A stretch of 64,000 nt of DNA from a virus (Duplodnaviria > Heunggongvirae > Uroviricota > Caudoviricetes), in IMG/VR virus record IMGVR_UViG_3300031555_002005; one strand, written 5' to 3'. A program made the translations under genes and the position numbers. The notes below the pieces were generated by a model. That model saw only the letters and a program-made list of their open reading frames with translations. It was not told where the DNA came from and did not search any database. How positions within the stretch are numbered: position 1 is the first letter of the stretch; each line of letters opens with the position of its first letter. Below, one piece after another: positions 969 to 62,104 of the stretch.

Positions 969-1178
969 ATGAAATACGTAGTTGTTGTAACAGAAAAACT
1001 TGAAAGAGGATATATTGTAGAAGCAGACAATCCAAAAGAAGCAGAAAAGAAAGTGTCGGAAGTATATAATAACCAGGAAATTACTCTTGATTATAGCGAC
1101 TATAATGGCTATGAGATTTCATGTGATAGAGAGGCAAGTGAATGTGACCTTGACCTTTATGACGATTTAGAAGATTAA
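969..1178 (+). CDS. hypothetical acidic protein (69 aa)
   Basis: ORF preceded by GGAGG RBS. Confidence 0.5.
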   Translation: MKYVVVVTEKLERGYIVEADNPKEAEKKVSEVYNNQEITLDYSDYNGYEISCDREASECDLDLYDDLED

Positions 1179-1207
1179 ACAATACAAAATTAACGGGAGG
1201 TGTAAAC

Positions 1208-2467
1208 ATGGATATTCTATTGAAGAAGTTCTTTGAAAAAGAACGATGGGAACAGGCACTTGAAACTGGTGTAGATAAGCACATTGACAAGGGAGAATTG
1301 AGAAAGCTTACATCTCCCGAAGTTAGACTTGCTTTGTATAGTGCAATTGTTAACGACAACTATGAGATTGCCCCGCCACATCAAGTACAGATTCCCAAAG
1401 ATAACGGAGACATGAGAATTGTATATGTCAATGAAAATGTTGACCGTATCTTCTTGTCTATTGTGAACAATCTTTTCTTTGAAATGTTCCCTGAGTTTGT
1501 GCATAAAAGCTGTAAGTCATATCAGTCTGGTATTGGCTGTGGCAAGATTGTACAGGAAGTTTCAAGAGAGATGGTTAAGGTAAACAGCAAGATTGTTGGC
1601 TTTAAGGCAGATTTAACTAAATACTTTGATACTGTTCCTATTAAGTACATAGATGAAATCTTTGACAGAATGGAAAGCAAAGTTGGTAAGTCCAAAATCA
1701 TTGATGTTGTGCGCAAGTATTATCATGCTGATTTATGCTTTGACTACAACGGAGAGCTTATTGAACATTATCAGTCTTTAAAGCAAGGTTGTGCAGTAGC
1801 AAGCTTCTTGGCTGATGCAGTGCTCTATCCAATCGATAAGGAAATCAGTGACATGGATGTTTACTATGTAAGATATTCTGATGATTTGCTTGTAGTTGGT
1901 AGGTGTTACGATGAAGCTTTTCAGATTTTAAAGGCAATGCTGAAAGAGATGGACATGACTTTGAATCCCAAGAAAGTAGAAACTGTTTGCAAAGACAGAT
2001 GGGTTAAATTCCTTGGTTTTAATATCAAAGGAAGCCAGATTACGCTTTCCAAGCAGCGTGTTAAGTCTTTCCAAAAGGAGATTGAAGCACGAACTATTAA
2101 GCAGCGCAAAACTTCTATGGAAAGAGCCATCAACCAAGTGAATAACTATCTCTATAAAGGAGATGGAACTTATTCTTGGGCGACATCTGTGTTACCTATT
2201 ATCAATGTAGAAAAAGACATTGATTCTTTGAATGAATTTGTCATGGATGCAATCAGAGCGTGTGCTACTGGTAAGAAAAAGATTGGAGGTCTGGGAAGTG
2301 TAAACAGCAAAGAAGACTATACAATTCTGCGTGGCACTGGCAAGAATGTGAGCGCAAACAGAGACAAGACTGAAAAGGAAATTGACGGTTTCCTAAGCTT
2401 AAGGTGCATGAGAAACGCTATTCTTACAAACCGAAGTGTATATGAGACTTTGGTAAGAAGTATGTAA
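1208..2467 (+). CDS. reverse transcriptase (retron/Abi/UG-DRT-like or DGR-like; class unresolved)
   Basis: RT motifs 1-7 read in the translation: IPKDNGDMRIV, SYQSGIGCGK, FKADLTKYFDTVP, QGCAVASFLADAVL, YVRYSDDLLVVG, LNPKKVE, FLGF. GGGAGG RBS. About 170-aa C-terminal extension. Confidence 0.85.
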   Translation: MDILLKKFFEKERWEQALETGVDKHIDKGELRKLTSPEVRLALYSAIVNDNYEIAPPHQVQIPKDNGDMRIVYVNENVDRIFLSIVNNLFFEMFPEFVHKSCKSYQSGIGCGKIVQEVSREMVKVNSKIVGFKADLTKYFDTVPIKYIDEIFDRMESKVGKSKIIDVVRKYYHADLCFDYNGELIEHYQSLKQGCAVASFLADAVLYPIDKEISDMDVYYVRYSDDLLVVGRCYDEAFQILKAMLKEMDMTLNPKKVETVCKDRWVKFLGFNIKGSQITLSKQRVKSFQKEIEARTIKQRKTSMERAINQVNNYLYKGDGTYSWATSVLPIINVEKDIDSLNEFVMDAIRACATGKKKIGGLGSVNSKEDYTILRGTGKNVSANRDKTEKEIDGFLSLRCMRNAILTNRSVYETLVRSM

Positions 2468-3018
2468 TCAAAGTTGTAATGCAGCAATAAATTGCAAGGC
2501 AACCGAATTCAACTATCTTCCGTCCACCGGCATATCAGAGGAGATACCCAGCTCGCTGTCGCTCCGCTGGAGTATCGCCTCGATCATGCAGGCGAACAGA
2601 AGCTAATATGAAGCAAATAAAGAAATGCATCGTGGTTGTGAGCAATTTAATTGGCAGTGCGGCCATAGATTGCAAGGTAATTAAATTCAATGACGCAGCA
2701 TACAATTCAGAAATTATGATCTTACTTGCGTGCTATCTCACGCCATAAGATCATAATCTTCTGGCCAATGCTGCATATATGAAGCTATTAAAGTAACGCA
2801 CCAATATTATGAGCAATCTACATTTGGAGTATACCAAAAGAAATGCAAGGCAGTTAAATTCAATACCCTGCAATTGATAAGCCCTAATATGAGGCTCCTT
2901 CAGGGTATCCCCTGAAGCTGCCTCATCTGATGGCTTCCAATCTCAGGGTTACATGAAACATCTAAAGTTATATACCGAAACTGTTGAGCATCTTATATTT
3001 TATAAAGGAGGTAAATCA
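2468..3018 (+). ncRNA. highly structured non-coding region downstream of the RT (candidate RT-associated ncRNA)
   Basis: No ORF. Three copies of TGCAAGG-N-TAAATTCAA (about 2493, 2670, 2844). Two ATATGAAGC-N-TAAAG boxes (2606, 2776). Perfect 12-bp hairpin 2713-2757. Nested hairpin 2888-2930. Confidence 0.45.
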
Positions 3019-3480
3019 ATGACTATCTATGAAGAGCTGATTAAGCGAGTTGAAGAGGGTGAGTCATTTTATATTAACTTTAAGAATCAGGCGCTCAAAA
3101 TTGGCAAGGAATTTATTGTTGCTGATGGTTTTTATGACGATGAACGCATTCTTTATACAACTTCTGAATTGGAAATGTCTGAGATTTTGGCATATATTGA
3201 AACGCTGTATGAAAACTACAAGTACTCTTTACCAAGCGAAAGAAGCGACAGTAGGCGCAGACAGTATTTTAAGGCACTGCCAGTGGACAAGCTTACTGAT
3301 AAGCAAATGGCAACTGGGCAAAGACGTGAGGTTGCAAGAGCGAGGCTTGAAGGTTTCATTCTTTGCATGATTGTTGATGGCTTCTTTGTATGGAACGAAG
3401 AAGAAATGGGCAAGTGGTTTTACCAGTCTAATAGAAATCCTGATTTAGTAATTCTGAGAAACTGGATTGAAAATAATTAA
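3019..3480 (+). CDS. hypothetical protein
   Basis: ATG at 3019 with AAAGGAGG RBS 7 nt upstream; the track ORF starts earlier at 2953 without an RBS. Confidence 0.55.
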   Translation: MTIYEELIKRVEEGESFYINFKNQALKIGKEFIVADGFYDDERILYTTSELEMSEILAYIETLYENYKYSLPSERSDSRRRQYFKALPVDKLTDKQMATGQRREVARARLEGFILCMIVDGFFVWNEEEMGKWFYQSNRNPDLVILRNWIENN

Positions 3481-3500
3481 TAGAAAAGGAGAATGATATT

Positions 3501-5073: not shown

Positions 5074-5098
5074 AATATAAGATTTGGAGGTAATACAT

Positions 5099-5776
5099 AT
5101 GAAACAAGAAAAAGACTTTACAATGAGCAGACAGGAATACATAGATTTTCTTGCAAACAAAAGCAATGAAATCAATATGGGAAATAAGAACAGCAAGACT
5201 GGCGCAGCTTGTTTGAATCTTGCATTTCCTGTGGCTGTATGTCGTGAAGATGCACCTTGTAAGGCAACTTGCTATGCATGTAAAGGATGTCAGACTATGG
5301 CAAATGTGCAGGCAGCTTACTACAGAAATCTGAGACTGTATCATGATGATCCTGATAATTTCTTTGAACAGGTTTACTGCAAGGTAAAGTTCTCTGGACT
5401 ACCCAAAGTGAGACTGTTTGATAGTGGCGATTTTCCTGATGCAGACTTCTTGGTAAGGCTTGTGGATCTGTGTAAGAAAACTCCTGACACTAAGTATATG
5501 GCATTTACTAAGAAGTATGAGATTGTTAATGATTACATTGACAAGAATGGAGAGCTGCCTGAAAACCTTAACATTATATTCTCTGCATGGGACAAGCTTT
5601 GGGAAGTACCTAATCCTCATGGACTTGGTATGGCCTATGTGGATTTTAATGATAAGAGGTTGAATGCTGAATGGCCTAAAAACGCATTTATATGCCCCGG
5701 CAGAGCATCTACTTGTTCCGCTTGTGGCGCTTGCTGGTCTAAGAGACTTAAGGCAGTTGTGTTTCATCAGCACTAA
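5099..5776 (+). CDS. Cys-rich protein, possible Fe-S/radical-SAM-like phage protein
   Basis: TGGAGG RBS before the ATG at 5099; multiple CxxC/CxxxC clusters. Confidence 0.5.
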   Translation: MKQEKDFTMSRQEYIDFLANKSNEINMGNKNSKTGAACLNLAFPVAVCREDAPCKATCYACKGCQTMANVQAAYYRNLRLYHDDPDNFFEQVYCKVKFSGLPKVRLFDSGDFPDADFLVRLVDLCKKTPDTKYMAFTKKYEIVNDYIDKNGELPENLNIIFSAWDKLWEVPNPHGLGMAYVDFNDKRLNAEWPKNAFICPGRASTCSACGACWSKRLKAVVFHQH

Positions 5777-5857
5777 CAATACAAAATTAATGTAAATGTT
5801 TAAGTAGACCGTATCATTTCTTTTATAGTATAATATGAAGGAAATGAGGTGTATGTA

Positions 5858-6043: not shown

Positions 6044-6075
6044 GTGGGTCTCTTATTTTGTGATTACAATACAAA
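6044..6075 (+). terminator. rho-independent terminator
   Basis: GAGACC-TGCGAGTAAGT-GGGTCTC stem followed by TTATTTTG. Confidence 0.6.
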
Positions 6076-6108
6076 ATTAATGAAATGACGATTTGGTGAG
6101 GTAATAAA

Positions 6109-6340: not shown

Positions 6341-6946
6341 ATGATTATTGAACAGAAACGTTATGAAATTGCAGATGTCTTTGGCCTTTTAGGAGAAGAA
6401 TATCTTTGTAGAAATAATGATGGCGGTCAGTCTGGAAGTGATATTGTTGTAGATGGATTTAATGTACATCCAATTTCTCTTCGATATATGACATTCTATC
6501 AGAAAGGTACAAAGTGTGTTTGTTGTGGAAAAGAAGGAACCCACTTCAAGCTTTGTGGCGATGAAAATACAAATCGAAGACATTTTAATCTGTATGCAGA
6601 AGATGGAACTCTAATGACAAAAGATCATATTTTGCCTAAGAGTAAGGGTGGTCTTAATAGAGTATCTAATATGCAAACAATGTGTACAGACTGTAATAGC
6701 GCAAAAGGCTCTCACTGCCCTGGCTATGAAAAAGAATATATTGTTGGCCGAAATGCAGAGGGAAAAGAAATTGCATTTTCCTCAATTGAAAAGGCAGTTT
6801 ATCACTTGGTAAACAATCATATGAAGAAAAAGAATACCAAAGAGGATTGGGCAAGAAAAGCTATTAATATTACTTTGCAATTACTCAATGTAATTGAAAC
6901 AGGAGAGTGTTATCAAAATAGAATTTGGACAAAGGAAATGAGATAA
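6341..6946 (+). CDS. HNH homing endonuclease
   Basis: DHILPKSKGG...N...CTDCNSAKG HNH motif. Confidence 0.75.
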   Translation: MIIEQKRYEIADVFGLLGEEYLCRNNDGGQSGSDIVVDGFNVHPISLRYMTFYQKGTKCVCCGKEGTHFKLCGDENTNRRHFNLYAEDGTLMTKDHILPKSKGGLNRVSNMQTMCTDCNSAKGSHCPGYEKEYIVGRNAEGKEIAFSSIEKAVYHLVNNHMKKKNTKEDWARKAINITLQLLNVIETGECYQNRIWTKEMR

Positions 6947-8111: not shown

Positions 8112-8140
8112 ATACTTGACAATCCAAAATTAATGTAGTA
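8112..8140 (+). promoter_or_regulatory. sigma-A-type promoter with the conserved element in the spacer
   Basis: TTGACA-atccaaaattaatgtag-TATAAT. Confidence 0.6.
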
Positions 8141-8164
8141 TAATGCAGAAAGGAAAAATTAAAA

Positions 8165-8625: not shown

Positions 8626-9044
8626 TGAGCGAAAGAGAGAATTTTATTGTCGTCAATGGTCAAAAATATTATACCGGAACTGTTTTTCTGATTGATTTTC
8701 ATGGTAAGGTACAAGAGGCATCTTTTGTCTGCACTGTTGTCAAGACAAATAGAGTTCGATGTAAACTTGCTAACTCTTACTGGTTTATACATGCTGACGA
8801 TTTTCGCAAAAGAATTGTTGAGATCACAGATAAGGTTGATTCCAGTGTGCACATGCCCGTTACCAAAACAATGAAAGACACTGAGATTGGCAGCCTGTTT
8901 ATTGGCTGGCTGTGGTATATTTTTCTTATGGCAATTAGCACGATTTTTAAAAATGCAATTGGACTGTGGTGTTTTATTTCTTGGGTGTTTTTTACTTGGA
9001 GAGCTAAGAAAATAAAAGAGGAGGGGACTTACATTGAGTGGTAG
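8619..9044 (+). CDS. membrane protein (C-terminal TM helices)
   Basis: Hydrophobic C-terminus. Confidence 0.5.
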   Translation: MLMSERENFIVVNGQKYYTGTVFLIDFHGKVQEASFVCTVVKTNRVRCKLANSYWFIHADDFRKRIVEITDKVDSSVHMPVTKTMKDTEIGSLFIGWLWYIFLMAISTIFKNAIGLWCFISWVFFTWRAKKIKEEGTYIEW

Positions 9045-10008
9045 ACTTGAAAAAGAAAGACAAATCGAACAGCAGGTCATGAAAAAACTTGACTCTATGC
9101 CTTCTATCTTAACAGACTATTATTATAGTTTAATTGGTGCAGGCAAATCATATAGAACTGCAAAAGTATATATAGAAAATGTAATTCAGTTTGTAAAATT
9201 TACATTTGGAAAAAATATTAAAGAAGACTTTTATTCTAGTGTGAACGCAATCCATATCAATAGATATATTGCTTCTCTGAGAACAAAGACTGTAAAAGGA
9301 AAAACGGAGCGCACATCTGATAGTCACAAAACATTAAATTGGTCTTCTTTAAATTCGTTTTTTCAATTCTTGGTTCCAGATTATATTTCCACAAACCCTG
9401 TGGCAAATACAAAAAGACCCAAAATGAAAGATAATCCAAATGTTACATTCTTGGACACGGAAGAAATGGCAAAAATCTTTAAAAATGTTAAAGAAAAAGC
9501 GAATCCACGAATGTTAAATAGAGATATGTGCCTTTTAAAACTTGGGTTTGCTACGGGCTTACGTATTTCTGCAATAGTACAAATTGATATTGATGATTTA
9601 GATTTAAAACGTAATCAAATCAGAATTACAGAAAAGGGAGATCATGACGATTATGTGATTATAGGAGATAATCTTAAAGCGCAAGTTGAACTGTGGCTAA
9701 AAGACAGAGAGGAATATTTTAGTGATGTAAACAGTAATGCTCTGTTTGTTTCGCAAGAAAAGAATAGACTTAGCGCACGATCTGTTAAGGATTTAATGGA
9801 TAAATATACACTTGGCGCAACTGATAAAAAGGTTACACCTCATGTAATGCGTCACTCTTGTGCGACAAATTTGTATGAAAAAACTGGAGATATTTATCTG
9901 TGTGCAAGACAGTTACATCATAAAAATGTATCTACAACACAGAGATATGCTGAGCTGTCTAAAGAGAAACAGAAAAAGGCGGCGAATATTCTTGATGACA
10001 TGATTTGA
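9034..10008 (+). CDS. tyrosine recombinase/integrase (XerD-like)
   Basis: R...HxxR...Y catalytic residues (GLRISA, HVMRHSCAT, TQRYAE); GAGGAGGGG RBS; TTG start. Confidence 0.75.
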   Translation: MSGRLEKERQIEQQVMKKLDSMPSILTDYYYSLIGAGKSYRTAKVYIENVIQFVKFTFGKNIKEDFYSSVNAIHINRYIASLRTKTVKGKTERTSDSHKTLNWSSLNSFFQFLVPDYISTNPVANTKRPKMKDNPNVTFLDTEEMAKIFKNVKEKANPRMLNRDMCLLKLGFATGLRISAIVQIDIDDLDLKRNQIRITEKGDHDDYVIIGDNLKAQVELWLKDREEYFSDVNSNALFVSQEKNRLSARSVKDLMDKYTLGATDKKVTPHVMRHSCATNLYEKTGDIYLCARQLHHKNVSTTQRYAELSKEKQKKAANILDDMI

Positions 10009-10042
10009 CAAGAATATGATTATTCCAACAATTACAAATTGA

Positions 10043-10071
10043 CAAACACGTGTTCGCAATGTATAATATTC
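10043..10071 (+). promoter_or_regulatory. sigma-A-type promoter
   Basis: TTGACA-N17-TATAAT. Confidence 0.55.
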
Positions 10072-10090: not shown

Positions 10091-11005
10091 ATGTATCAAT
10101 CTGAAATGAAAGAGGGTTTTATAAAAGACTATATGAGATCAAGGGTGGTTGCTCGAACGTCTTTATATAGTTTATTCAGAAAAACAGAACCATTTGAAGA
10201 AGAGAATAAAAAGGATTGCAGTCAGTTCAATCAAGATGAAGCTTTATCTATGTACACAAAATTTAAAGCAAAATCAATTTATGTGCTTCTTAATTATAAT
10301 ACAATTTTAAAAGCTTATTGTGCATGGAGACACTATTACCATAAAGAAAAAGTTACGGACTCATATGACAATACTACTATAGAATTACTGAAACCATGTG
10401 TCCCAGAAGATAGTAATAAGTTTTTATCAAGAGAAGAAATAATAGAAATAGAAGATCAATTATATAATTGGACCGACAAGGCAATTGTAGAGTGTTTATG
10501 GGAAGGTATTTCTGGACCAAGTATGATTGACTTGGTGAATATCAATAGATCTATGGTCGATTTTAAGGAAAAGGAAATGTACTTTTCAGACGGAAGAATA
10601 ATTGAATTAACTGATAGGTTATGTGAGCTTTTAAACAAGACATTTGATGAAATTGAGTATATGTGCTACGGAGAATCATTAAGAGTTAAAAAGCTTGTTG
10701 GAATTGGCAATCTATACAAAGAAAGAGATAATGCGCATGCAACAGATTCAAATGATAAATATTTCAGATGGGTGTATAGGAAAGTACAAAATTTTAGAGA
10801 TCATGTTGGTATCCCCGGACTAACCATGAAAAATATACACATATCTGGTATGTATCATTATTTGTGTCAAGGGATGCAAGAAACTGGGCTTGACCTGAAA
10901 AGCTTCTTGAAATCTCAAGATGGTGCGGAATTGGCTTGTAAATATGGTTTTCATTCAGATAGTTACGTAGATAATTTAACACACCGCTTTAAAGATTTTG
11001 TTTAA
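10091..11005 (+). CDS. hypothetical protein (304 aa)
   Basis: GAAGGGG RBS. Confidence 0.55.
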   Translation: MYQSEMKEGFIKDYMRSRVVARTSLYSLFRKTEPFEEENKKDCSQFNQDEALSMYTKFKAKSIYVLLNYNTILKAYCAWRHYYHKEKVTDSYDNTTIELLKPCVPEDSNKFLSREEIIEIEDQLYNWTDKAIVECLWEGISGPSMIDLVNINRSMVDFKEKEMYFSDGRIIELTDRLCELLNKTFDEIEYMCYGESLRVKKLVGIGNLYKERDNAHATDSNDKYFRWVYRKVQNFRDHVGIPGLTMKNIHISGMYHYLCQGMQETGLDLKSFLKSQDGAELACKYGFHSDSYVDNLTHRFKDFV

Positions 11006-11327: not shown

Positions 11328-11356
11328 GGCTTGACAAAATAGAAAAAATATGTTAT
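11328..11356 (+). promoter_or_regulatory. sigma-A-type promoter
   Basis: TTGACA-N17-TATACT, followed by the conserved element. Confidence 0.5.
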
Positions 11357-11389
11357 ACTATCACTAGCAAAAGAAACAATACAAAATGA

Positions 11390-11635
11390 ATGTGTGTTTT
11401 ACAGCTGGTGAAGGGAGGTTACATATGTTTGGAAGGCAGGGGAAAAGAGCGCACGTGGATTCAGTGCCAAAGTTGTGGGCATATATACCAAACAAACAAA
11501 AAAGTTTCTATTGAGAAATCGATAATTGAATCAGTTTGTCCAGAATGTGAGGGACATGTTGGGTTAAACTGCGGAGATAAAGAAGAAGATATTTATGTTT
11601 ATATGAATCCAAATTTAGATAATAGATACTACTAA
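11390..11635 (+). CDS. zinc-ribbon protein (start uncertain; possible TTG at 11429)
   Basis: CQSCGH...CPECEGH. Confidence 0.45.
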   Translation: MCVLQLVKGGYICLEGRGKERTWIQCQSCGHIYQTNKKVSIEKSIIESVCPECEGHVGLNCGDKEEDIYVYMNPNLDNRYY

Positions 11636-11693
11636 GGAAATTATATTTTTATAATTAACAATACAAAATTTATGACAAAAAGAGAGGTACTAT

Positions 11694-12047
11694 ATGGTTT
11701 ATTACGGAACTAGTAAAATTGAAACTCTATGGGTTGGGCCAGAGAACGACATGGATGATGTTTGCTGCATTGACATGACTAAGGCATATGATGAGAATAT
11801 GTTTTATGTTAGTACATGCTGTAATACTGATTGGGTGTGGAAGTTCAAGATGGAGGGAGAAACCAACTATGAAATGGTAAAGTACACCATTATTGATGAA
11901 ATTTTTGAATGCGAGAATATGATTGAACTGATGGATCATCTTGATGACATTTTTGGAGAACTTTTTGATGATATTGTTGCGTATGAAGATGAGGCACATG
12001 ATGAGCTGTGTTGTGAAAATTGCAACCATAGAAGTTGCTTGAATTAA
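11694..12047 (+). CDS. hypothetical acidic Cys-containing protein
   Basis: AGAGAGG RBS. Confidence 0.55.
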   Translation: MVYYGTSKIETLWVGPENDMDDVCCIDMTKAYDENMFYVSTCCNTDWVWKFKMEGETNYEMVKYTIIDEIFECENMIELMDHLDDIFGELFDDIVAYEDEAHDELCCENCNHRSCLN

Positions 12048-12071: not shown

Positions 12072-12944
12072 ATGGAGGAAATTAATAATGGCGTTTTAAC
12101 AATACAAAAAATTTCAAATGAAAAACAAAATTGGTGTGTTTATTTACATACAAACAAAATAAATGGGAAGAAATATGTTGGTATCACTGGCCAAAATCCA
12201 GAAGATAGATGGAGAAGAGATGGTAAAGGATACAGAACTCAAAAGTATTTTTGGAGAGCAATTCAGAAATATGGATGGAACAACTTTAAACATGAAGTTG
12301 TTTTATATAACGAAACTTTTAAATACGCATGTGCCGTAGAAAAATGTTTAATAAAGCATTATAAATCTAATGATCCAAGGTATGGTTATAATCTTACTGA
12401 TGGTGGCGAAGGCGTTTCTGGTAGAACTCCATGGAATTATGGAATACCAATGTCTGACGAAATGAAAGAAATAATACGGAAAGCAAATACTGGGAGAAAA
12501 ATATCCGAAGAAACACGTAAAAAATTAATTAATGCAAAAAAGGGTAAGCCTCCCAATAACGCAGGGCGTCCAATGTCAGACGAAACAAAAAGAAAATTGT
12601 CAATGTCGCTTATTGGACGAGTGTTTGATGATGAGACAAAACAAAAAATTAGCAATTCCAAAAAAGGAAAATACACAGGCGTAGATAGCTCTAGACATCA
12701 CCCAATTTATTGCGTTGAATTAAATGAAATTTTTTGGGGTGCAAAGGCTGTGAAAGATAAGTATGGTTTTACCACATGTAATATTGGAGCATGTTGTAGA
12801 GGAGAGCGAAATTATGCCAATAAACATCCAGACACCGGAGAGAAGCTTCATTGGATCTATTGTGATGATGCAATAAAAAATGGATATATTACATCATTTC
12901 AACTTGATAATTACTATAAAGGATTAATGGACAAAGGAGATTAA
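12072..12944 (+). CDS. GIY-YIG homing endonuclease (I-TevI-like)
   Basis: NWCVYLHTN...KKYVGIT GIY-YIG motif plus NUMOD-like repeats; start codon uncertain. Confidence 0.75.
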   Translation: MEEINNGVLTIQKISNEKQNWCVYLHTNKINGKKYVGITGQNPEDRWRRDGKGYRTQKYFWRAIQKYGWNNFKHEVVLYNETFKYACAVEKCLIKHYKSNDPRYGYNLTDGGEGVSGRTPWNYGIPMSDEMKEIIRKANTGRKISEETRKKLINAKKGKPPNNAGRPMSDETKRKLSMSLIGRVFDDETKQKISNSKKGKYTGVDSSRHHPIYCVELNEIFWGAKAVKDKYGFTTCNIGACCRGERNYANKHPDTGEKLHWIYCDDAIKNGYITSFQLDNYYKGLMDKGD

Positions 12945-15198: not shown

Positions 15199-15217
15199 CA
15201 GTATGAAATTAATGTAG

Positions 15218-48749: not shown

Positions 48750-48767
48750 TATAAAAGGAGCAATAAA

Positions 48768-49937
48768 ATGATTCATTCTTATCAGAAACCTTTGAGTGGC
48801 AAAAGTGTTGGTGTAGTATTTGGCTCTTTTGCCCCTCTACACCAAGGTCATCTGGACTGCATTATGAGGGCAAAGAAAGAAAATGATGGCGGCGCAATTG
48901 TAATCGTTTGCGGATTCGACGGTGACAAGGGTGGTAAAATGATGCCACTAAAGCGAAGATACAGATATGTTAGAGAGTTCTTCTCTGATGATGATTTGGT
49001 TGCTGTATATGCAATTGATGACGGTGAGATTGGCGCAGAGCCTTATCCTAATGGTTGGGAAAAGTGGCTCGACGAGTTTTGGAATATTTGGGAAAAGGCC
49101 ACTGAGCTATCTTGGAAAGAAACAGATGGTCCAGAAGGTTTTGAAACTAGTGTTAGTTTGGAACGTCCTAAGCGCCACTGGTATGCAGGTGACCCTAATT
49201 ATGTGAGTGACCTCGTTGAACGTGGCGAAGAAGCAACTCTGCTTGACCGTGTAGCAGACAATCCTATTTGTGCAACAATGATTCGTCAGAATCCTATTAA
49301 GCACTGGGATAAAATTACTTTCCCCTTCCGTCGTCTGTTTAGCCACAACATTCTAATTTGTGGCACAGCATCTGAAGGTAAATCAACTCTTACAACGGAT
49401 CTTGGTAAGTATTTCAATGCGCCTTATAGCTATGAATGGGCACGTGACTATATGAGAGAAAGTTGCGTTATTGACTGGGAACTAGATGGCGCAGATTATA
49501 TGGCTTTCCTTGAAGGCCAGTACAACCTAAACAAGCAGATGATTAATTCTCCTGGCAATCATGGCATTTTCTTTGCTGATTCTGACTCTATGGTAACTAG
49601 AATGTATGCAGAGTATTATGCTCAGGATGAAACTTGTGCGCTTACTCAAGAAGAATTTGAACGAGTAGCAGTAATGGCCGATGAAATTACACGTAAATCT
49701 CGTTGGGACAAGATCTTCTTACTGGCACCGCATGGTGTATTTGTTGACGACCATGAAAGATATATGGCTCATTCTGGCATGAAGGAACGGCAAGAGCTAT
49801 TTGAAATCCTATGCAGAAACATTAAGGAATCTGGAAACTGGGACAAGGTTACAATTCTAACTGGAAACTATTACGAAAATTTCATGGCAATTGTAAGTTA
49901 TGTAAAAGATCGAATTGAGAAAGGCATGGCTGATTAA
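48768..49937 (+). CDS. nadR: NadR-like bifunctional NMN adenylyltransferase / ribosylnicotinamide kinase
   Basis: GSFAPLHQGH (HxGH nucleotidyltransferase) N-terminal domain; C-terminal P-loop GTASEGKST. Confidence 0.7.
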   Translation: MIHSYQKPLSGKSVGVVFGSFAPLHQGHLDCIMRAKKENDGGAIVIVCGFDGDKGGKMMPLKRRYRYVREFFSDDDLVAVYAIDDGEIGAEPYPNGWEKWLDEFWNIWEKATELSWKETDGPEGFETSVSLERPKRHWYAGDPNYVSDLVERGEEATLLDRVADNPICATMIRQNPIKHWDKITFPFRRLFSHNILICGTASEGKSTLTTDLGKYFNAPYSYEWARDYMRESCVIDWELDGADYMAFLEGQYNLNKQMINSPGNHGIFFADSDSMVTRMYAEYYAQDETCALTQEEFERVAVMADEITRKSRWDKIFLLAPHGVFVDDHERYMAHSGMKERQELFEILCRNIKESGNWDKVTILTGNYYENFMAIVSYVKDRIEKGMAD

Positions 49938-50429
49938 ATGGCTAAAATGTATTTAATGTGCGGTTGCAGTGGCGCAGGAAAGACAACATTTGCAAAAGAG
50001 TTTGCCAAGAAAAATAGCCTTAAGTATTTAGGTATTGATGATTTCTACGCACTAGTCAATGGTGATGAATGTATACACACTAATTCATTTGAAGTGTGGA
50101 TTGAATTTTATAAAGCAATTCATGAAGCAGAGATTAATAATCTTGACGTAGTTATTGATACAAATGCAATTACTCGTTCTCATCGTGAACAGTTTATTGA
50201 TTGGTTTCCAACTTTTGAACATCATCTAATTTACATTAAAGCTACACATGACCTAAGAAAGCAGAACAATAAATCTCGTCGCAGACAAGTTCCAGACGAT
50301 GTAATGGATAAAATGCGTGACCAATTTCAAATACCTTTGTTGAGTGAAAAGTTTAAAACAATCACAATAATTAGAAACGTTGATAATAATTTTAGAGTAC
50401 CTATTGTATTAAAAGGAGAAGCAAAATGA
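49938..50429 (+). CDS. P-loop kinase (AAA_33/zeta-like)
   Basis: MCGCSGAGKTT Walker A. Confidence 0.5.
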   Translation: MAKMYLMCGCSGAGKTTFAKEFAKKNSLKYLGIDDFYALVNGDECIHTNSFEVWIEFYKAIHEAEINNLDVVIDTNAITRSHREQFIDWFPTFEHHLIYIKATHDLRKQNNKSRRRQVPDDVMDKMRDQFQIPLLSEKFKTITIIRNVDNNFRVPIVLKGEAK

Positions 50430-51118
50430 AGAATTGGGTATTGAAGAATTTTTGGAATGGATACACTCTTTTCGAGAAGCTGTTTATGCTAGTAGCAGTA
50501 GCAATGCAGGTGATTGTCTTTATGATTACACCTGATAGTTGGCTAAATATCGTAGCTGGCCTTGCTGGTGTAGTGTCTGTTATTATGTGCGCCAAGGGTA
50601 GAACCATGTTCTATTTTATTGGCTTTATTCAGACGGTAACGTATCTGGTTCTTGCATGGCAGAATAGATTTTATGGCGAAGTGCTTGAAAACATTTTCTA
50701 CTTTGTAACTATGATTTTGGGCATTTTTGAGTGGAAGAAGAATGAAGTCACCAATGCTGACGGTACTGAGGATGTTATTGCCAAGAAGTTCAGTCCCACT
50801 CAGTGGATTCTGTCTATTGCTGGCACTGTAATTGCAACGATGGCTATGGGTTACTGGTTAGACGGTATTGGTAGCGCACAGGCATATACAGATGCAGCTA
50901 CTAATGTTATGGCTATCTTTGCTCAGCTTTTAATGGTTTGGAGATTCCGTGAGCAGTGGATTTGGTGGATCGTAATTGATCTGTTCTGCATCAAGATGTG
51001 GTTCGTTGCAGGTAATTGGTCCATGGTTGCAATGTACATTGTTTGGACTGTAAATGCAATTTATGGTTGGATTAATTGGAGTAAGTTGAACAAGATTCAG
51101 AGCGTTAAGGAGGCTTAA
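50426..51118 (+). CDS. pnuC: PnuC nicotinamide riboside transporter
   Basis: About 230-aa polytopic membrane protein, Trp-rich, with PnuC-like layout, immediately after NadR. Confidence 0.6.
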   Translation: MKNWVLKNFWNGYTLFEKLFMLVAVAMQVIVFMITPDSWLNIVAGLAGVVSVIMCAKGRTMFYFIGFIQTVTYLVLAWQNRFYGEVLENIFYFVTMILGIFEWKKNEVTNADGTEDVIAKKFSPTQWILSIAGTVIATMAMGYWLDGIGSAQAYTDAATNVMAIFAQLLMVWRFREQWIWWIVIDLFCIKMWFVAGNWSMVAMYIVWTVNAIYGWINWSKLNKIQSVKEA

Positions 51119-53617: not shown

Positions 53618-55573
53618 GTGAATAAAATTGATAGAATTAAAGAACTCGTAGAGCTGCTAAATCATTATCGAAATGAATATTATAACAACTCTCGCAGTGA
53701 AATCTCAGATTTTGAATATGACCAGTTATTTGACGAACTTGTTAGTCTAGAATCAGAAACTGGTTTTATTATGGCAGTGTCACCAACACAAACAGTTGGT
53801 TATGAGGTTAAGTCAGAACTGAAAAAAGTGAAACATAATCATCCTATGTTGTCACTTGATAAAACCAAAAGCGTAGATGATGTACTTTCATTCCTTGATG
53901 GAAAAGATGGCGCAATTATGGCCAAGATGGATGGGCTGACATGTTCGCTACGATATTTGAATGGAGAGCTTGTTTCTGCTGAAACGAGAGGCAATGGTGA
54001 GGTCGGAGAGGATATTTTGCACTGTGCAAAAACTATTAAAAATATTCCTCTTAAAATTAATTGCACAGAAGAAATCATTATTGATGGCGAAGTGATTATT
54101 ACATATGATGACTTTGAAAAAATCAATTCCACATTACCAGACGATCAAAAATACAAACATCCACGAAACCTTGCGTCAGGATCTATTAGACAGCTTGATA
54201 GCAATATTGCCGCACAAAGAAACATGAAGTTCATTGCGTGGAAAGTTATTAAAGGTTGTAGTAATAATTCTTTTATACGTAGGTTGATGTTTGCAAGTGG
54301 ACTTGGGTTTAGCACTACTCCACTAATTCCACTGCCGACGATTTTTCAAAATAAAGAGCAGATTCAAATTGCGATTGAACAAATTAAGATTTGGTCTAAA
54401 GAAGAAGGATATCCTATTGACGGATGTGTGTTTGGATATGACGATGTAGCTTATGGTAAATCACTTGGTGCAACAGGACACCATCTGCGTAGCCAACTTG
54501 CTTTTAAGTTTTATGATGAGTTATATCCTACAAGATTACAATATATTGATTGGACAATTGGTAAGTCTTCTCAGCTAACACCAACAGCAGTATTTGATAC
54601 TGTAGAAATTGATGGAGCCGATGTGTCACGTGCATCACTACATAATATCAGTATTATTAAAAATCTTGGACTGACTAATGGTTGTACTGTAAATGTATTT
54701 AAGGCCAATCAAATTATCCCACAGATTGACTCTTGTGAAAATGATGGCAGTGGTGATATTGAAATCCCTATGACTTGCCCGATTTGTGGAGGAGCAACTG
54801 CTATTAAAAGAGATAATGAATCTGAGGTGCTAATCTGTACAAATTCTGAGTGTGCGGGCAAGAAGCTTGCGCAGTTTACTCACTTTGTTTCTAAGAAAGG
54901 TATGGATATTAAAAATTTATCTGAGGCAACACTTCAAGATTTGATCTCACATGGATTTATCCACAACTTCAAAGACATTTACCATCTTGCTGACCATAAA
55001 CAGCAACTTATTCGTCTAGATGGATTTGGCAAAAAATCAGTGGAAAATCTGCTAAAATCTATTGAAGATTCGAGGAATGTGAAGCTTGAGAATTTTATTG
55101 CTGCACTAGGCATTCCAAACATTGGACTATCAGCGTCTAAAACTATATCAAAACACTTCAGTGGCAGCTATAAAGAATTAATGAATACATATTTTTACTG
55201 GCGTTTTGATTGGACAGCTCTTGAAGACTTTGGAGATGTTATGGCAGAAAGTATCAATAAGTATTTGTGTAATCATTTTGAAGAAATTAATGAATTGGCC
55301 GATGAAATGAATTTTATACTTCCAGAGGAGCATAATGATAATTCTCTTGAAGGATTAAAGTTTTGCATAACTGGCAGTTTCAGTCAGCCTAGAGATGGCC
55401 TCAAGAAGCAGTTAGAGAGCCGTGGAGCCAAGTTTATCAGCTCCGTGAGCAAGAATCTGGACATTCTTTTCGCAGGAGAGAAGGCTGGCAGCAAGCTTAC
55501 AAAGGCACAACAGCTTGGTGTTAGAGTTGCAAATGAAGAAGAATTAATGAAGATGCTTGGAGAACATATATGA
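53618..55573 (+). CDS. ligA: NAD-dependent DNA ligase
   Basis: KMDGL adenylation motif; CPICGG zinc finger; HhH; C-terminal BRCT-like; GTG start. Confidence 0.85.
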   Translation: MNKIDRIKELVELLNHYRNEYYNNSRSEISDFEYDQLFDELVSLESETGFIMAVSPTQTVGYEVKSELKKVKHNHPMLSLDKTKSVDDVLSFLDGKDGAIMAKMDGLTCSLRYLNGELVSAETRGNGEVGEDILHCAKTIKNIPLKINCTEEIIIDGEVIITYDDFEKINSTLPDDQKYKHPRNLASGSIRQLDSNIAAQRNMKFIAWKVIKGCSNNSFIRRLMFASGLGFSTTPLIPLPTIFQNKEQIQIAIEQIKIWSKEEGYPIDGCVFGYDDVAYGKSLGATGHHLRSQLAFKFYDELYPTRLQYIDWTIGKSSQLTPTAVFDTVEIDGADVSRASLHNISIIKNLGLTNGCTVNVFKANQIIPQIDSCENDGSGDIEIPMTCPICGGATAIKRDNESEVLICTNSECAGKKLAQFTHFVSKKGMDIKNLSEATLQDLISHGFIHNFKDIYHLADHKQQLIRLDGFGKKSVENLLKSIEDSRNVKLENFIAALGIPNIGLSASKTISKHFSGSYKELMNTYFYWRFDWTALEDFGDVMAESINKYLCNHFEEINELADEMNFILPEEHNDNSLEGLKFCITGSFSQPRDGLKKQLESRGAKFISSVSKNLDILFAGEKAGSKLTKAQQLGVRVANEEELMKMLGEHI

Positions 55574-55936: not shown

Positions 55937-55964
55937 TTGACAAACTAGAAATTTCTGCTATAAT
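55937..55964 (+). promoter_or_regulatory. sigma-A-type promoter
   Basis: TTGACA-N16-TATAAT, then the conserved element. Confidence 0.55.
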
Positions 55965-55997
55965 AACAGTACAAAATTAATGAAAGGAATAACCAAT

Positions 55998-56487: not shown

Positions 56488-57627
56488 ATGGTTTTAACTA
56501 ATGGACAAGAAAAAGGATTAAAGATAGCGGTTGAAAGATATAAAAAAGGAAAGCCGTACACAACTATTGTCGGGTACGCTGGAACTGGTAAAACGACACT
56601 TGTTAGATTTATTGTGGATGAACTCAAGCTACATGACTCTAAAGTTGTATACATTGCATACACAGGAAAGGCTGCATTAGTTCTACGTAACAAAGGATGT
56701 ACTAATGCTATGACCGCCCATAGGCTATTATATAAATCAGAAGAGCTTCCAGACGGAACATTTATTCATACGCCAAAAAAGAAGCTGGACAGAAATTATG
56801 ATCTAATTGTTTGTGATGAGGCGTCAATGCTGCCACAGGAGATGATAGACCTATTGTTGTCACACAGTGTTCATGTATTATTTCTTGGTGATAATGCACA
56901 GCTCCCTCCAATTGAAGGCAAGCAGACTATTCTCAATAATCCAAATGTATTTTTAACAGAGGTTACGAGGCAAGCACTTGATAATCCTATTATTCAATTA
57001 TCTATGGATGTGCGAGAAGGAAAACGGCTTGAATATGGCGGTGACAAGCGATGCAGAGTAATGCAGAATGACAAAGTTACAGATGCGTTGTTGCTTGGTG
57101 CAGATCAAATTATTGTTGGTAAAAATATTACCAGACATAAGATTAATGAGTATATGCGTCAATTAAAATGGGGAGAAAAATATTCTAAAGATCCCCTAGA
57201 AGGAGAAAAGTGTATTTGTCTTAAAAATAACTGGAACGAAACCGCATCAAATGGAGATCCATTAATTAATGGGCAAATTGGGCAGTTAACAAACATTCAC
57301 ATAATTGAAATGCCCCCTTATGAGAAAGTTATTGTTGCAGATTTTATATCTGATGATGGTGGAGTTTATGAAGATTTATTAATTGACTATAAGTTAATGG
57401 TTGAGGGAAAATCCACTGTAAATAAAGATAATTGGAAACAATATGCCGGTGCGCCAAAATTGCTTGAATTTGCATATGCATATGCGATCACTTGTCATAA
57501 GAGCCAAGGTTCTGAGTTTAATCGTGTGATTTTATTTGAAGAGTGGCTAGGAGATTATGAACAGCATCAGAAGTGGTTATATACCGGAATCACGAGAGCT
57601 TCAAAACAATTAGTAATTGTTAAATAA
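56488..57627 (+). CDS. RecD/Dda-like superfamily-1 DNA helicase
   Basis: Walker A GYAGTGKTT; LIVCDEASML; C-terminal motifs. Confidence 0.75.
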   Translation: MVLTNGQEKGLKIAVERYKKGKPYTTIVGYAGTGKTTLVRFIVDELKLHDSKVVYIAYTGKAALVLRNKGCTNAMTAHRLLYKSEELPDGTFIHTPKKKLDRNYDLIVCDEASMLPQEMIDLLLSHSVHVLFLGDNAQLPPIEGKQTILNNPNVFLTEVTRQALDNPIIQLSMDVREGKRLEYGGDKRCRVMQNDKVTDALLLGADQIIVGKNITRHKINEYMRQLKWGEKYSKDPLEGEKCICLKNNWNETASNGDPLINGQIGQLTNIHIIEMPPYEKVIVADFISDDGGVYEDLLIDYKLMVEGKSTVNKDNWKQYAGAPKLLEFAYAYAITCHKSQGSEFNRVILFEEWLGDYEQHQKWLYTGITRASKQLVIVK

Positions 57628-57660
57628 ACAATACAAAATTAATATAAGTGAGGTGAGAGT

Positions 57661-58314
57661 ATGGGAAAAATAATTGATATGACCGGATGGGTTATGAGTG
57701 AACATGGTGTTCCTGATAGCAAATGGAAAGTTATAGAGCGGTCTAAATCTTTAGACGGGAAAAATAGTTTTTGGTTATGCGAATGCTCCTGTGATAATCA
57801 TACAAGAAAAATTATAGCACGGCATAGTCTTGTAAGCGGAAATAGTAAGTCTTGTGGGTGTTTGTCAGCAGAAGAAACAAGTAAGAGAATAAGTACTCAT
57901 AAAATGTCTGGATCTCGCCTTCATAATATATGGAAAAGCATGAAAGAAAGATGCTATAACATTAATCACAACCAATATAAAGACTATGGCGGAAGAGGAA
58001 TTGCTATATGCGAAGAATGGAAAGATGATTTTATTTCTTTTTATAACTGGGCAACAAGTAATGGTTATAGTGACAATTTGACAATAGATAGGATTGATAA
58101 TAATAAAAATTACTGTCCTGAAAATTGTAAATGGAGCACAAGAAAAGAACAAAATAATAATCAGCGAACTAATCATTTGCTTACATATAACAATAAAACA
58201 CAAACAATGGCGCAGTGGGCGGAAGAGATTGGATTGAATCCACGTACATTGCAAACACGTATTTCAAGAGGATGGAATGTACAAGATGCATTGTTCGGAA
58301 AAGCACAAAATTAA
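57661..58314 (+). CDS. HNH (HNH_3/AP2-type) homing endonuclease
   Basis: NLTIDRIDNNKNYCPENC...NQRTNH. Confidence 0.65.
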   Translation: MGKIIDMTGWVMSEHGVPDSKWKVIERSKSLDGKNSFWLCECSCDNHTRKIIARHSLVSGNSKSCGCLSAEETSKRISTHKMSGSRLHNIWKSMKERCYNINHNQYKDYGGRGIAICEEWKDDFISFYNWATSNGYSDNLTIDRIDNNKNYCPENCKWSTRKEQNNNQRTNHLLTYNNKTQTMAQWAEEIGLNPRTLQTRISRGWNVQDALFGKAQN

Positions 58315-58333
58315 TGAGAGGGAGTGATATAAA

Positions 58334-61300: not shown

Positions 61301-61675
61301 CAGAGTCTATCTATGTTTATCACATTTAATCCTTTGAAAGAAGCCTATGATCTTATTGGCACCGAGTGGGATGATGTTCCAAGTGGCAACAAAGCAGTTG
61401 TGCCATGTGTTATTGTAGATATCAAACGTAAAAAGGATAGAAATAATAATCAGTTTGCATATTTAGATTTGTGTATTAATGACCGCATTCTAGAAGCAAC
61501 TATTTGGAGTAAACAGCTTAAAGAATATGCTGAGCTTATCACAAAGGGTAGTTGTATTTGCATTCTTGGTAAAAAAGAAGAAGAACATTTATTTGTTGAG
61601 AAGATTAAGCCGTATCAGGTTTGGCTTAACAAGATCAAAAAGCTTAAAGCAAAAGCTAATATTTATAACTATTAA
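58334..61675 (+). CDS. dnaE: DNA polymerase III alpha subunit (DnaE-type) with N-terminal PHP domain
   Basis: MSFVNLHVHSAQGSLLDS PHP motif; 1113 aa; polymerase core motifs; TTG start with GAGGGAG RBS. Confidence 0.85.
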   Translation: MSFVNLHVHSAQGSLLDSILTIDQMVKYAVDNKQPAIALSDHGTMHGFVDQVELCNKHGIKPIVACEIYEVDNYLEKQDTKEYKQPRYHLLLIVKTQQGLKNLFKIVSEASTTGFYGKPRISIPWIKDNNLGDGIICLTACQAGRVSRYLEAERYKEAEEYVKLLKDTFDYVSLEIQSHPTEQQLACNTLIFNFARYMKMPYVITTDAHMLSADQLDSHSIFVEIGEGREAGEIYSGCHLQNEKDVYKYLGNWNLDRVIQAGIDETIKITNMIDDGIDYGLGHGSITPVVDVPAEYSSHADYLHYLVFQTFNEKFGWMSKEEQEIRRERLERELPVINALDYTDYFIMLYMIAKEADKRGLPRGYSRGSGANCLCLFMLNVTQVDSVRWTLDFSRFANMGRIGSLADFDWDISKRRRKEIIEITEELFGKENVAPIATFNTLSTKVAIKDIGKVLNEKESSPYFGQIPYSVRDEVAKMIPTVKTLSDLGEAEEKDVLLRELVGKNEKLDTIHKQFPMWFKYVMDLEGLPKSRGRHASATLITPHPVIEHMPLCLDNDKNVMAQLEMHAAMDKLGYCKMDYLGLENLDIIDDALKNAGLTWDNVNINHLNIDDKKVFDEVYNSGNTIGIFQFESAEARAMSIAAHVDNIEDVIAVNASNRPGTKNSFPDYCKNKLHPESIESIHKDLDTLFKTTHSILLYQEDALHLFAYAGFPEEKQDVARRAIGKKKKDVMASLYEEFKNGLVAKQWSEKQIQDVWALLAKQAEYSFNRGHAVAYSLLSYLTAWLKVYYPVQFMTALLTAKSDRTEKLSAIINDCNRMGIQVLPPKINESKQSFTGNAAKREILFGFGAVKGIGDSVISKIIENQPYKSFDDYVDKVQDKTATIALIKANAFPTKDRMKLMQKYAKSLYPEKEYKPVSSLPTKARLLLDWDIDTSDYMIGKKVDKERVLNIYNQKRKEIFDADQKQKFKAFMAEFKCKYAEDEFLWEFQSLSMFITFNPLKEAYDLIGTEWDDVPSGNKAVVPCVIVDIKRKKDRNNNQFAYLDLCINDRILEATIWSKQLKEYAELITKGSCICILGKKEEEHLFVEKIKPYQVWLNKIKKLKAKANIYNY

Positions 61676-61680
61676 TTGTT

Positions 61681-61734
61681 AAGTCAAGAGGGAATTACCA
61701 CCCTCTTGACAATACAAAATTAATGTGATATAAT
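61681..61734 (+). promoter_or_regulatory. terminator-like hairpin overlapping a sigma-A promoter
   Basis: GTCAAGAGGG...CCCTCTTGAC hairpin whose 3' arm contains TTGACA; atacaaaattaatgtga spacer; TATAAT. Confidence 0.55.
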
Positions 61735-61766
61735 ATATCCGACTACAATGAAAGGAAGGTATTACA

Positions 61767-62090
61767 ATGGAAGATGAAATGAAGACCATTGAAGATCAGG
61801 AAAATGATAAGCCCGTTCTAGACGACGATGCTCTAAAGGGAGCAATTGAGGAACAGCTTTCTAAGATTCGAAGACAGTCTATGATTTTAGGCTTTAGAGT
61901 AAGCTGTCAGACTGTTCTAGACAAGATCACCGCATTTGAAAGATCCCCTGGCAGCAAGTCTAACAATGATCATAAGAGACTTATTAAGGATATTAAAAAG
62001 TTTGTAGAAACTGGACTTGCTCGTAAGATGAATGAGAATGGTGAAATCGAAGTTCCAGAAGAAACTGAATCTGAAACAGTACAAAATTAA
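61767..62090 (+). CDS. hypothetical acidic protein
   Basis: GAAAGGAAGG RBS. Confidence 0.55.
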   Translation: MEDEMKTIEDQENDKPVLDDDALKGAIEEQLSKIRRQSMILGFRVSCQTVLDKITAFERSPGSKSNNDHKRLIKDIKKFVETGLARKMNENGEIEVPEETESETVQN

Positions 62091-62104
62091 TGGAGGGCAA
62101 ATAC

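Follow-up and report, generated by a model that had tools for sequence, protein, structure and literature searches.

The 64,000-nucleotide stretch of IMG/VR virus record IMGVR_UViG_3300031555_002005 (Caudoviricetes), the whole of which is referred to here as the window, contains 28 copies of a 17-letter element, ACAATACAAAATTAATG, and we propose that this is probably the recognition box of an MrpR/SroF-type repressor encoded at coordinates 10091-11005 of the same stretch. It would thereby be the counterpart in this lineage of the SPBRE sites of the Bacillus phage SPbeta and of the SroF box of phage phi3T. An operator for a phage repressor was also preferred in an earlier, sequence-only reading of this DNA, which recognized no such factor in the window; the evidence favors the operator and also names a protein, as open reading frame (ORF) 10091-11005 is identified as an MrpR/SroF homolog by Pfam, by searches of PDB sequences and by Foldseek.

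A scan allowing up to three mismatches places all 28 copies on the + strand, compared with a mean of 1.38 and a maximum of 6 in 100 dinucleotide-preserving shuffles, none of which reaches 28. Eight copies are exact, 13 have one mismatch, four have two and three have three, and the density is about one site per 2.3 kb. The 24 near-identical copies and the uniform + orientation described previously were all recovered, each of the positions given then being within 6 nt of the true start, and four weaker copies (86, 15198, 18589 and 58300) are added here. The credible genes of the window are on the + strand without exception. Across related genomes the orientation follows the coding strand at 195 sites versus 4, and both strands are matched in one of 70 multi-hit loci, the minus-strand copy there preceding a minus-strand gene. 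In a set of 282 non-redundant copies from these genomes (the family set) the edges of the element are sharp, with 17-18 informative bp and flanks below 0.5 bit; it is a long, asymmetric, A-tract-rich box that is non-palindromic, contains an AAAATT tract and has no hairpin or other structure of its own. A polar sequence of the Chi, KOPS or packaging type is ruled out, since the motif is exclusively intergenic and tracks gene direction, the minus-strand gene included.

Contexts were assigned by reading the flanks of each copy and by scanning for TTGACA-N16-18-TATAAT, and four arrangements are found. In type III (four window copies) the element is fused into the spacer of a sigma-A promoter, cTTG-ACAATACAAAATTAATG-TGnTATAAT, so that the 17-mer provides the final three letters of the -35 as well as 14 letters of the 17-nt spacer. 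Type II copies (four) are separated from the -10 by exactly 1 nt and type I copies (seven) by 14-17 nt, so that a recognizable sigma-A promoter is associated with 15 of the 28. The other 13, type IV, have none and are located between the upstream stop codon and the Shine-Dalgarno (SD) sequence of the next gene, often overlapping the stop codon or final codons of the preceding gene. The sequence-only reading had described two contexts, and its promoter-associated classes do exist, including four fused TTGACA-motif-TGnTATAAT promoters (8119, 35698, 46968 and 61709), but it did not separate the four classes or the promoter-less copies. The 8-15 nt it placed between the motif and the ribosome-binding site is too long, with the motif usually abutting the SD sequence (0-5 nt). 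Three copies precede tRNA units, as had been stated: 22618 is 63 nt before tRNA-Met, 27111 is 1 nt before tRNA-Gln and 28258 lies before tRNA-like genes. The copies are as follows.

86-102 (+): weak copy ACAGTACAAAGTTAATA, 3 mismatches; no recognizable promoter.
1179-1195 (+): promoter-less junction copy abutting the stop of ORF 969-1178; the SD sequence of the reverse transcriptase gene (1208-2467) follows directly.
5776-5792 (+): exact copy overlapping the stop of ORF 5084-5776; a -10-like TATAAT lies about 40 nt downstream.
6066-6082 (+): exact copy right after a terminator-like hairpin; the ATG at 6109 lies 26 nt on.
8119-8135 (+): spacer-type copy in promoter TTGACAATCCAAAATTAATGTAGTATAAT, at the head of the operon that reaches the recombinase and MrpR-like genes.
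11376-11392 (+): copy beginning 17 nt past the final -10 base of promoter 11331-11359.
11658-11674 (+): promoter-less junction copy preceding ORF 11694-12047.
15198-15214 (+): weak copy with 3 mismatches, overlapping the ORF 14050-15198 stop; a hairpin (tagggagg...cctcccta) comes next.
18589-18605 (+): copy with 2 mismatches overlapping the final codons of GIY-YIG ORF 17548-18603; the next ORF starts at 18625.
18952-18968 (+): copy 1 nt past the -10 of promoter 18923-18950.
21709-21725 (+): copy beginning 18 nt past the final -10 base of promoter 21663-21691.
22202-22218 (+): exact copy beginning 15 nt past the final -10 base of promoter 22159-22187; tandem promoter 22080-22108 lies upstream.
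22618-22634 (+): exact copy beginning 15 nt past the final -10 base of promoter 22575-22603, which heads the tRNA array (tRNA-Met at 22698).
27111-27127 (+): copy beginning 18 nt past the final -10 base of promoter 27065-27093; tRNA-Gln (27129) is 1 nt downstream.
28258-28274 (+): copy with 2 mismatches beginning 18 nt past the final -10 base of promoter 28213-28240; tRNA-like genes downstream.
34504-34520 (+): copy 1 nt past the -10 of promoter 34475-34502; aminotransferase gene downstream.
35698-35714 (+): exact copy fused into promoter TTGACAATACAAAATTAATGTGTTATAAT; primase-like gene downstream.
37550-37566 (+): promoter-less junction copy overlapping the stop of dCMP-deaminase ORF 37134-37550.
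39910-39926 (+): copy with 2 mismatches, 1 nt past a TATACT -10.
43226-43242 (+): promoter-less junction copy preceding the LAGLIDADG homing-endonuclease gene 43261-44049.
44955-44971 (+): copy with 2 mismatches beginning 16 nt past the final -10 base of promoter 44912-44939.
46968-46984 (+): exact copy fused into promoter TTGACAATACAAAATTAATGTGGTATAAT; RecJ-like gene downstream.
48735-48751 (+): promoter-less copy overlapping the final codons and stop of the RecJ-like ORF; NadR-like gene next.
55966-55982 (+): copy 1 nt past the -10 of promoter 55937-55964.
57628-57644 (+): promoter-less junction copy abutting the stop of helicase ORF 56488-57627.
58300-58316 (+): weak copy with 3 mismatches, overlapping the ORF 57661-58314 end; DnaE gene next.
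61709-61725 (+): exact copy fused into promoter TTGACAATACAAAATTAATGTGATATAAT.
62076-62092 (+): promoter-less junction copy overlapping the end of ORF 61767-62090.

Seen from the promoters the association is close. None of the 16 credible consensus promoters is on the minus strand, and 14 carry the 17-mer at -25, +2 or +15 to +18, counted from where the -10 ends, placing it at about -33 to -17, -5 to +12 or +10 to +26 in the footprint of the polymerase. The two without a copy at a fixed offset are P10039, which drives the MrpR-like gene, and the tandem promoter P22080, which reads through the copy of its motif-bearing partner.

The candidate repressor gene lies directly behind a recombinase gene, in the following arrangement.

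9034-10008 (+): tyrosine recombinase with intact catalytic motifs (GLRISA, HVMRH, QRY), directly upstream of the MrpR-like gene.
10039-10067 (+): consensus sigma-A promoter of the MrpR-like gene (P10039), TTGACAAACACGTGTTCGCAATGTATAAT; no 17-mer; spacer dyad AAACACGTGTTCG.
10091-11005 (+): MrpR/SroF-type repressor homolog of 304 amino acids, with an integrase-like core-binding (CB) domain and a degenerate catalytic (CAT) domain; candidate binder of the 17-mer.

ORF 10091-11005 matches the Pfam family MrpR_N_CB (E 1.3e-12), and an identical database protein carries both MrpR domains, PF22822 and PF22823, which are recorded on all 120 homologs among the matches listed. A search of PDB sequences has phi3T SroF bound to DNA as its best match (9rd5, E 2.8e-11), followed by YopR/MrpR (8bj6, 8bjv and 8a0a, E 5e-9 to 1.5e-8). 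A low-confidence AlphaFold2 model (shallow alignment, predicted local distance difference test score, pLDDT, of 66), used for a rank-order fold search only, returns MrpR, SroF and YopR structures as its top six Foldseek matches (including SroF-Sar and SroF-DNA complexes), and then the Xer/Cre recombinases XerA, Cre and an integron integrase. By inspection of its sequence the protein appears to have lost the recombinase catalytic motifs: WEGISGPS stands in place of the GLRISA arginine box and LTMKNIH in place of HVMRH, and the protein aligns with YopR at the R-to-S position, for which the structural model is too poor to give confirmation. Among 60 window proteins scanned against Pfam there was no sigma factor, no RNA polymerase, no NusG paralog and no classical helix-turn-helix (HTH) repressor, and the sole HTH match is inside the LAGLIDADG homing endonuclease 43261-44049.

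The operon upstream of P10039 begins at the type III promoter 8116-8144, and the MrpR-like gene itself follows the strong promoter P10039, which has no 17-mer. The spacer dyad of P10039 is one mismatch from the Gram-positive LexA (Cheo) box. In the corresponding promoters of relatives, compared upstream of the MrpR-like gene in loci L131, L132, L134-L139, L142 and L144, a dyad is kept, as AAACAAGTGTTCG in L131, AAACAGGTGTTCG in L132 and L144, and ATGAATATTCAT in the L134 group. This suggests that the repressor promoter is under separate control, by LexA or by a dimeric phage regulator. As to LexA, near-matches to the Cheo box are expected by chance (13 matches with up to two mismatches) and relatives carry the different dyad ATGAATATTCAT, and we keep the dyad as an observation only. 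A perfect Cheo/LexA-box consensus, CGAACCTTTGTTCG, is present at 48461-48474 inside the RecJ-like ORF and may also be a chance occurrence.

MrpR is the master repressor of SPbeta, a monomer with a tyrosine-recombinase fold lacking the catalytic residues (PMC10516654). Chromatin affinity purification sequencing (ChAP-seq) located it on the 15-bp SPBRE in ten SPbeta promoter regions, and electrophoretic mobility shift assays and lacZ fusions confirmed binding and repression (PMC10516654). Its phi3T ortholog SroF is a monomer that encircles a 26-bp non-palindromic box, contacting 24 of the 26 bp and reading the shape of two A-tracts (bioRxiv 10.1101/2025.11.27.690993). By homology with SroF, the long, non-palindromic and strictly oriented form of the 17-mer would be explained by a single asymmetric monomer clamping a single long box.

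The arrangement of the sites in SPbeta matches that in the window. With the SPBRE derived from the SPbeta genome, CAAATACAAAAAATATGTAT, the copies at yonP and yorE form the 17-nt spacer of TAGACA-N17-TATAAT with the 5' CA completing the -35; those at yopV and yonX lie between promoter and SD sequence; and that at yopM abuts the SD sequence. The two phages thus share three box positions (promoter spacer, between -10 and SD sequence, and abutting the SD sequence), and in both the box is asymmetric, A-rich, 15-20 bp long and always co-oriented with the gene downstream. The window repressor gene lies beside a yopP-like recombinase gene, as yopP is upstream of yopR in SPbeta, and one relative (L148) has yopP, yopQ and yopR homologs in the SPbeta order; the window, in contrast, has no yopQ (sroE) homolog between recombinase and repressor. 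Other differences from SPbeta are the number of sites (about ten bound sites in 134 kb, versus 28 in 64 kb), the strong promoter with dyad operator that the window repressor has for itself, the occurrence of some sites before terminators or tRNAs, and a host that is probably a gut Clostridia bacterium and not Bacillus. A YonO-type RNA polymerase and a polymerase of the DnaE type are further features that the window lineage and SPbeta have in common. SPbeta YonO is a single-chain RNA polymerase related to the multisubunit enzymes, and relatives of the window phage (L084 474-1616; L018, L092, L052, L044, L065 and L105) encode a homolog with 28% identity (E 1e-31), whose gene is followed closely by a Zn-ribbon gene and the structural genes in a synteny shared with SPbeta.

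Comparison with SroF, the closest solved structure, shows conservation of the contact residues L25, K233 and R238 in the window protein. T22 and Y26 look conserved in the HMMER pairwise alignment, whereas MAFFT places an R and a gap there, and the equivalents of H237 and Q300 are Y and H. The phi3T box is also longer than the window element (26 bp versus 17), and neither a Sar antirepressor nor LexA control was identified in the window phage. The likeness to CI and Cro of lambda-type phages is limited to the overlap of repressor sites with early promoters; lambda operators are palindromic, dimer-bound and confined to two loci, whereas the window sites are asymmetric, single and scattered.

The exact 17-mer is present in more than 118 IMG/VR stretches, many of which belong to contigs 150-175 kb long. 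All four architectures recur there, and contigs bearing the 17-mer also carry an MrpR homolog. About 60% of the family copies (169 of 282) have no promoter and 15% (41 of 282) are in a promoter spacer; about a quarter of gene junctions carry the element. The genes downstream are early genes, with functions in DNA metabolism, homing, methylation and RNA repair, and the class found most often immediately behind a copy is that of homing-endonuclease genes. By profile scan, 61 loci were recovered whose MrpR homologs range from 80% down to 25% identity to the window protein. The top unseeded 12-mers of each locus are variants of one element, and in the seeded consensus the 5' half (ACA..ACAAA) stays constant and the 3' half changes with the clade, as listed here by identity of the MrpR homolog.

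At least 57%: TTAATG.
46-48%: TTAT[TA]G.
46% (L303): TTAAAG.
32% and 29%: TGATTA.
29-30%: gTGATT.
28%: TAATT.
25-27%: no clear repeat.

Over the 61 loci the motif falls into six classes, which correspond to six MrpR clades, the clades being phylogenetic groups as well. Members of a motif class agree at the positions equivalent to H237 and Q300, which contact bases in SroF, and the classes vary among themselves: one position has Y, L or Q and the other has H, D/N, T, E/Q, A or D. This clade-wise pattern in the sequences is consistent with co-evolution of box and repressor, and is not proof of it. A de novo repeat search of the loci with homologs of 25-27% identity (L146-L148 and L324) gave no clear element, and the link between motif and repressor is therefore not traceable below about 28%. 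A scan of the collection with ACANNNCAAAATGATTG (14 specified bases) returned mostly single chance matches, and the MrpR region of the L002-type phage was retrieved neither by this nor by an AAA-ATPase scan; the profile scan got round this gap indirectly, by finding other clades.

We infer binding, repression and roadblock action by this protein, with either the maintenance of lysogeny or the shut-off of early genes as its role. By homology with SroF, one inactive monomer with the tyrosine-recombinase fold would clamp one box. On consensus sigma-A promoters, which account for 15 of the 28 copies, the box lies within the footprint of the host polymerase and covers the -35 and spacer, the start site, or about +10 to +26. 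In each of these positions bound protein would keep the polymerase from initiating or from leaving the promoter. The repressor gene would escape its own control through a promoter without the box and with a different, dyad operator. A large uncultivated gut phage could in this way be kept off through nearly every strong promoter and many gene junctions.

A plain operator does not explain the 13 promoter-less copies, for which a roadblock-type or auxiliary role is needed. We therefore suggest, tentatively, that the same 17-mer may double as an elongation roadblock at junctions, such that copies in tight junctions and before tRNAs or terminators would act against read-through. The reported SPbeta sites are all in promoter regions, so this role is extrapolated from an unrelated repressor family, that of the cluster A mycobacteriophages, in which a monomeric repressor acts on more than 20 asymmetric 13-mers in promoters and short intergenic spaces, the stoperators, whose orientation is tied to transcription and whose reversal abolishes repression (PMC9283540). 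The window phage resembles these phages (L5 gp71 and the TipsytheTRex repressor; PMC9283540) in the proposed monomeric repressor, in having an asymmetric site present more than 20 times per genome, in the location of sites in promoters and short intergenic spaces in an orientation tightly following that of transcription, and in an operator overlapping a TTGACA -35. It differs in the fold of the repressor (integrase-like, versus HTH plus stoperator domain), in the length of the site (17 bp versus 13) and in the host, which is actinobacterial in cluster A, and the elongation block is demonstrated there and predicted here. No protein of the L5 gp71 family, which combines an HTH with a stoperator domain, turned up in the window; by analogy we infer a system that functions like stoperators and yet is no member of that family.

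Two conserved sites in the relatives have the order stop codon, 17-mer, hairpin terminator. One follows the Zn-ribbon gene behind the YonO-like gene and precedes the first structural genes (L084 3445-3500, with equivalents in L079, L118, L055, L092, L044 and L073), and the other is directly after a late gene of about 400 codons, probably that of the major capsid protein (for example, L079 minus strand 4762). This order is also seen at the weak copy at 15198 in the window. One may speculate that a roadblock before a terminator could shield the late operon from the host polymerase. An AT-rich conserved stretch, TTTCAATTTTYATAAAATGA, is present past the first terminator in L084, L079 and L118 and could be a late promoter.

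Several observations weigh against a box for an MrpR-like repressor. Ungapped alignment of SPBRE with the window motif has AATACAAAA-N3-ATG in common, 12 of 17 positions with a 9-nt run, which is marginal given the A/T content, as 12 of 17 is reached in 5% and a 9-nt run in 2.9% of shuffles; the likeness of the phi3T box to the 17-mer, reached by 16-33% of shuffles, is not significant. The argument therefore rests on geometry and on the protein and not on the letters. The model of the protein is poor, and the co-variation is confounded by phylogeny, since any phage protein differs between clades. The large share of family sites without a promoter stands against about ten SPbeta sites all reported at promoters, the pairs of motif and terminator are not explained by simple repression and fit a nut-like element equally well, and the exact 1-nt offset in 26 of 26 family type II copies is tighter than steric repression needs. 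Finally, no integrated prophage was found, the sole genome match being a free contig of 162.6 kb binned with a Faecalimonas metagenome-assembled genome, so that a temperate lifestyle is no more than a possibility, the intact tyrosine recombinase adjoining the repressor notwithstanding.

Among the other explanations, one in which the motif acts during transcription, as RNA or on the non-template strand, has the most in its favor, and we consider it unlikely. It could load an antitermination or processivity factor (nut- or ops-like), be cut by an endoribonuclease, or form an unstructured A-rich leader by which translation is enhanced or repressed. The strict orientation with transcription would be expected of such an element, as would transcribed junction copies that abut the SD sequence, mostly with 10-19 nt from motif end to start codon, the promoter-proximal position of type I copies in leaders, and copies just before tRNAs and before intrinsic terminators, as lambda nutR lies before tR1. 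A nut or ops element has to be downstream of the start site, and this holds for type I and junction copies but fails for the copies in promoter spacers. Type III copies lie outside the transcript of their own promoter, in spacers, which normally vary freely, but they are the best conserved class of the family (61% exact, a mean of 0.51 mismatches versus 0.88-1.13 in the other classes). Similarly, type II copies have the start site inside the motif, and the untranscribed part upstream of it is as conserved as the remainder. These two patterns, together with registers within the polymerase footprint, favor recognition of duplex DNA, and the homologous SPBRE is bound as DNA by MrpR. The lack of structure in the element and of a NusG paralog or RNA-binding factor by Pfam in the window also speaks against an RNA-level role, and a purely translational one, which the sequence-only reading had already dismissed, is excluded by the tRNA and terminator contexts.

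A compact promoter for a phage RNA polymerase or sigma factor (for example, of the YonO type), giving middle or late transcription from the 3' purine, is more doubtful still. The element is long, near-invariant and oriented like the promoters of single-subunit polymerases, its 3' purine is directly before the SD sequence, the promoter-less copies could be independent starts, a YonO homolog is present in the family and the variants are clade-specific. SPbeta YonO, however, uses a single start upstream of yonK for the entire late operon (PMC5467207), and the yonN-yonK gap has no SPBRE-like sequence. The motif precedes early, DNA-metabolism and homing-endonuclease genes, whereas the first structural gene has no motif directly upstream, the nearest copy being beyond the terminator hairpin, and a promoter directly before a terminator would be odd. 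The fixed footprint offsets at 14 of 16 host promoters would be needless for an independent promoter, and neither a polymerase nor a sigma factor was found in the window by Pfam. This possibility, raised by the sequence-only reading, is accordingly disfavored.

It is very improbable that the motif is a recombination or cassette-boundary site (an arm site for the adjacent tyrosine recombinase, or a repeat aiding the shuffling of cassettes or homing endonucleases), for although the recombinase at 9034-10008 is intact, copies of the motif stand at gene boundaries, even behind the last gene of a unit, and homing-endonuclease genes are the commonest downstream, the motif consists of one asymmetric arm that lacks both an inverted partner and a spacer and is hence not a core site, only about one junction in four carries it, any repeat promotes recombination passively, and the precise promoter registers and identical sequence across diverged genomes favor the site of a regulatory protein.

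By Pfam, the window belongs to a large phage and covers its replication, nucleotide and tRNA-repair functions. Its products include DnaE, an NAD-dependent ligase, RecJ, a Dda-like helicase and a primase-like protein, together with RNA ligase, Tpt1, Thg1, a kinase like polynucleotide kinase (PNK), NadR, PnuC, several homing endonucleases and a reverse transcriptase. A megablast search with 8 kb of the window against cultured phages gave no match, and the nearest cultured relative by DnaE is Clostridium phage Amboise, which at 47% identity is too distant to inform. There are 21 tRNA genes between 22.7 and 34 kb, and an Rfam scan of the window matched only tRNAs. Four tRNA-like genes carry insertions of 50-80 nt (Rfam matches of 123-151 nt) and were either missed by ARAGORN or given an undetermined anticodon. 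Beside the tRNA array is a set of RNA-repair and tRNA-maintenance genes, and a 517-amino acid protein with DUF2828 and DUF7788 domains is encoded in the middle of the tRNA region. An NAD salvage module, in which a NadR-like nucleotidyltransferase and kinase is joined by a PnuC transporter of nicotinamide mononucleotide, lies beside the NAD-dependent DNA ligase gene. The reverse transcriptase gene is directly behind a promoter-less 17-mer copy. The coordinates of these genes are as follows.

1208-2467: reverse transcriptase (RVT_1, E 9e-22).
6341-6946, 12072-12944, 17548-18603, 25215-25700 and 43261-44049: free-standing homing endonucleases (HNH, GIY-YIG and LAGLIDADG).
19727-20254, 20715-21509, 40124-41509, 42274-43200 and 44055-44903: Tpt1/KptA 2'-phosphotransferase, metallophosphoesterase, RNA ligase, kinase plus HD phosphatase (PNK-like) and Thg1-like tRNA-His guanylyltransferase.
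22858-22980, 23451-23601, 28583-28712 and 28725-28852: tRNA-like genes with insertions.
29354-30907: DUF2828 and DUF7788 protein.
48768-49937, 50426-51118 and 53618-55573: NAD salvage module and NAD-dependent ligase.

A broader picture, which we offer as possible and as a provisional one, is that the 17-bp box forms a genome-wide grid, serving as operator at promoters and as oriented roadblock at junctions, tRNA arrays and the early/late boundary, where the sites would insulate the YonO-transcribed late operon; this would be convergence on stoperators by an unrelated fold, conserved with an identical box in hundreds of uncultivated gut-Clostridia phages of about 160 kb. If an MrpR-like repressor does act through this box, repressors with the integrase fold would extend from the SPbeta-like phages of Bacillus to uncultivated gut phages of 150-175 kb that form a very large clade, and silencing by many oriented single sites would have arisen independently of the actinophage stoperators. 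The clade-specific 3' half and the accompanying changes in contact residues would provide a natural series for how this fold reads DNA. The clade would also gain an easily scanned regulatory signature that marks nearly every early transcription unit, as an aid to annotation, and immunity groups would become predictable from metagenomes.

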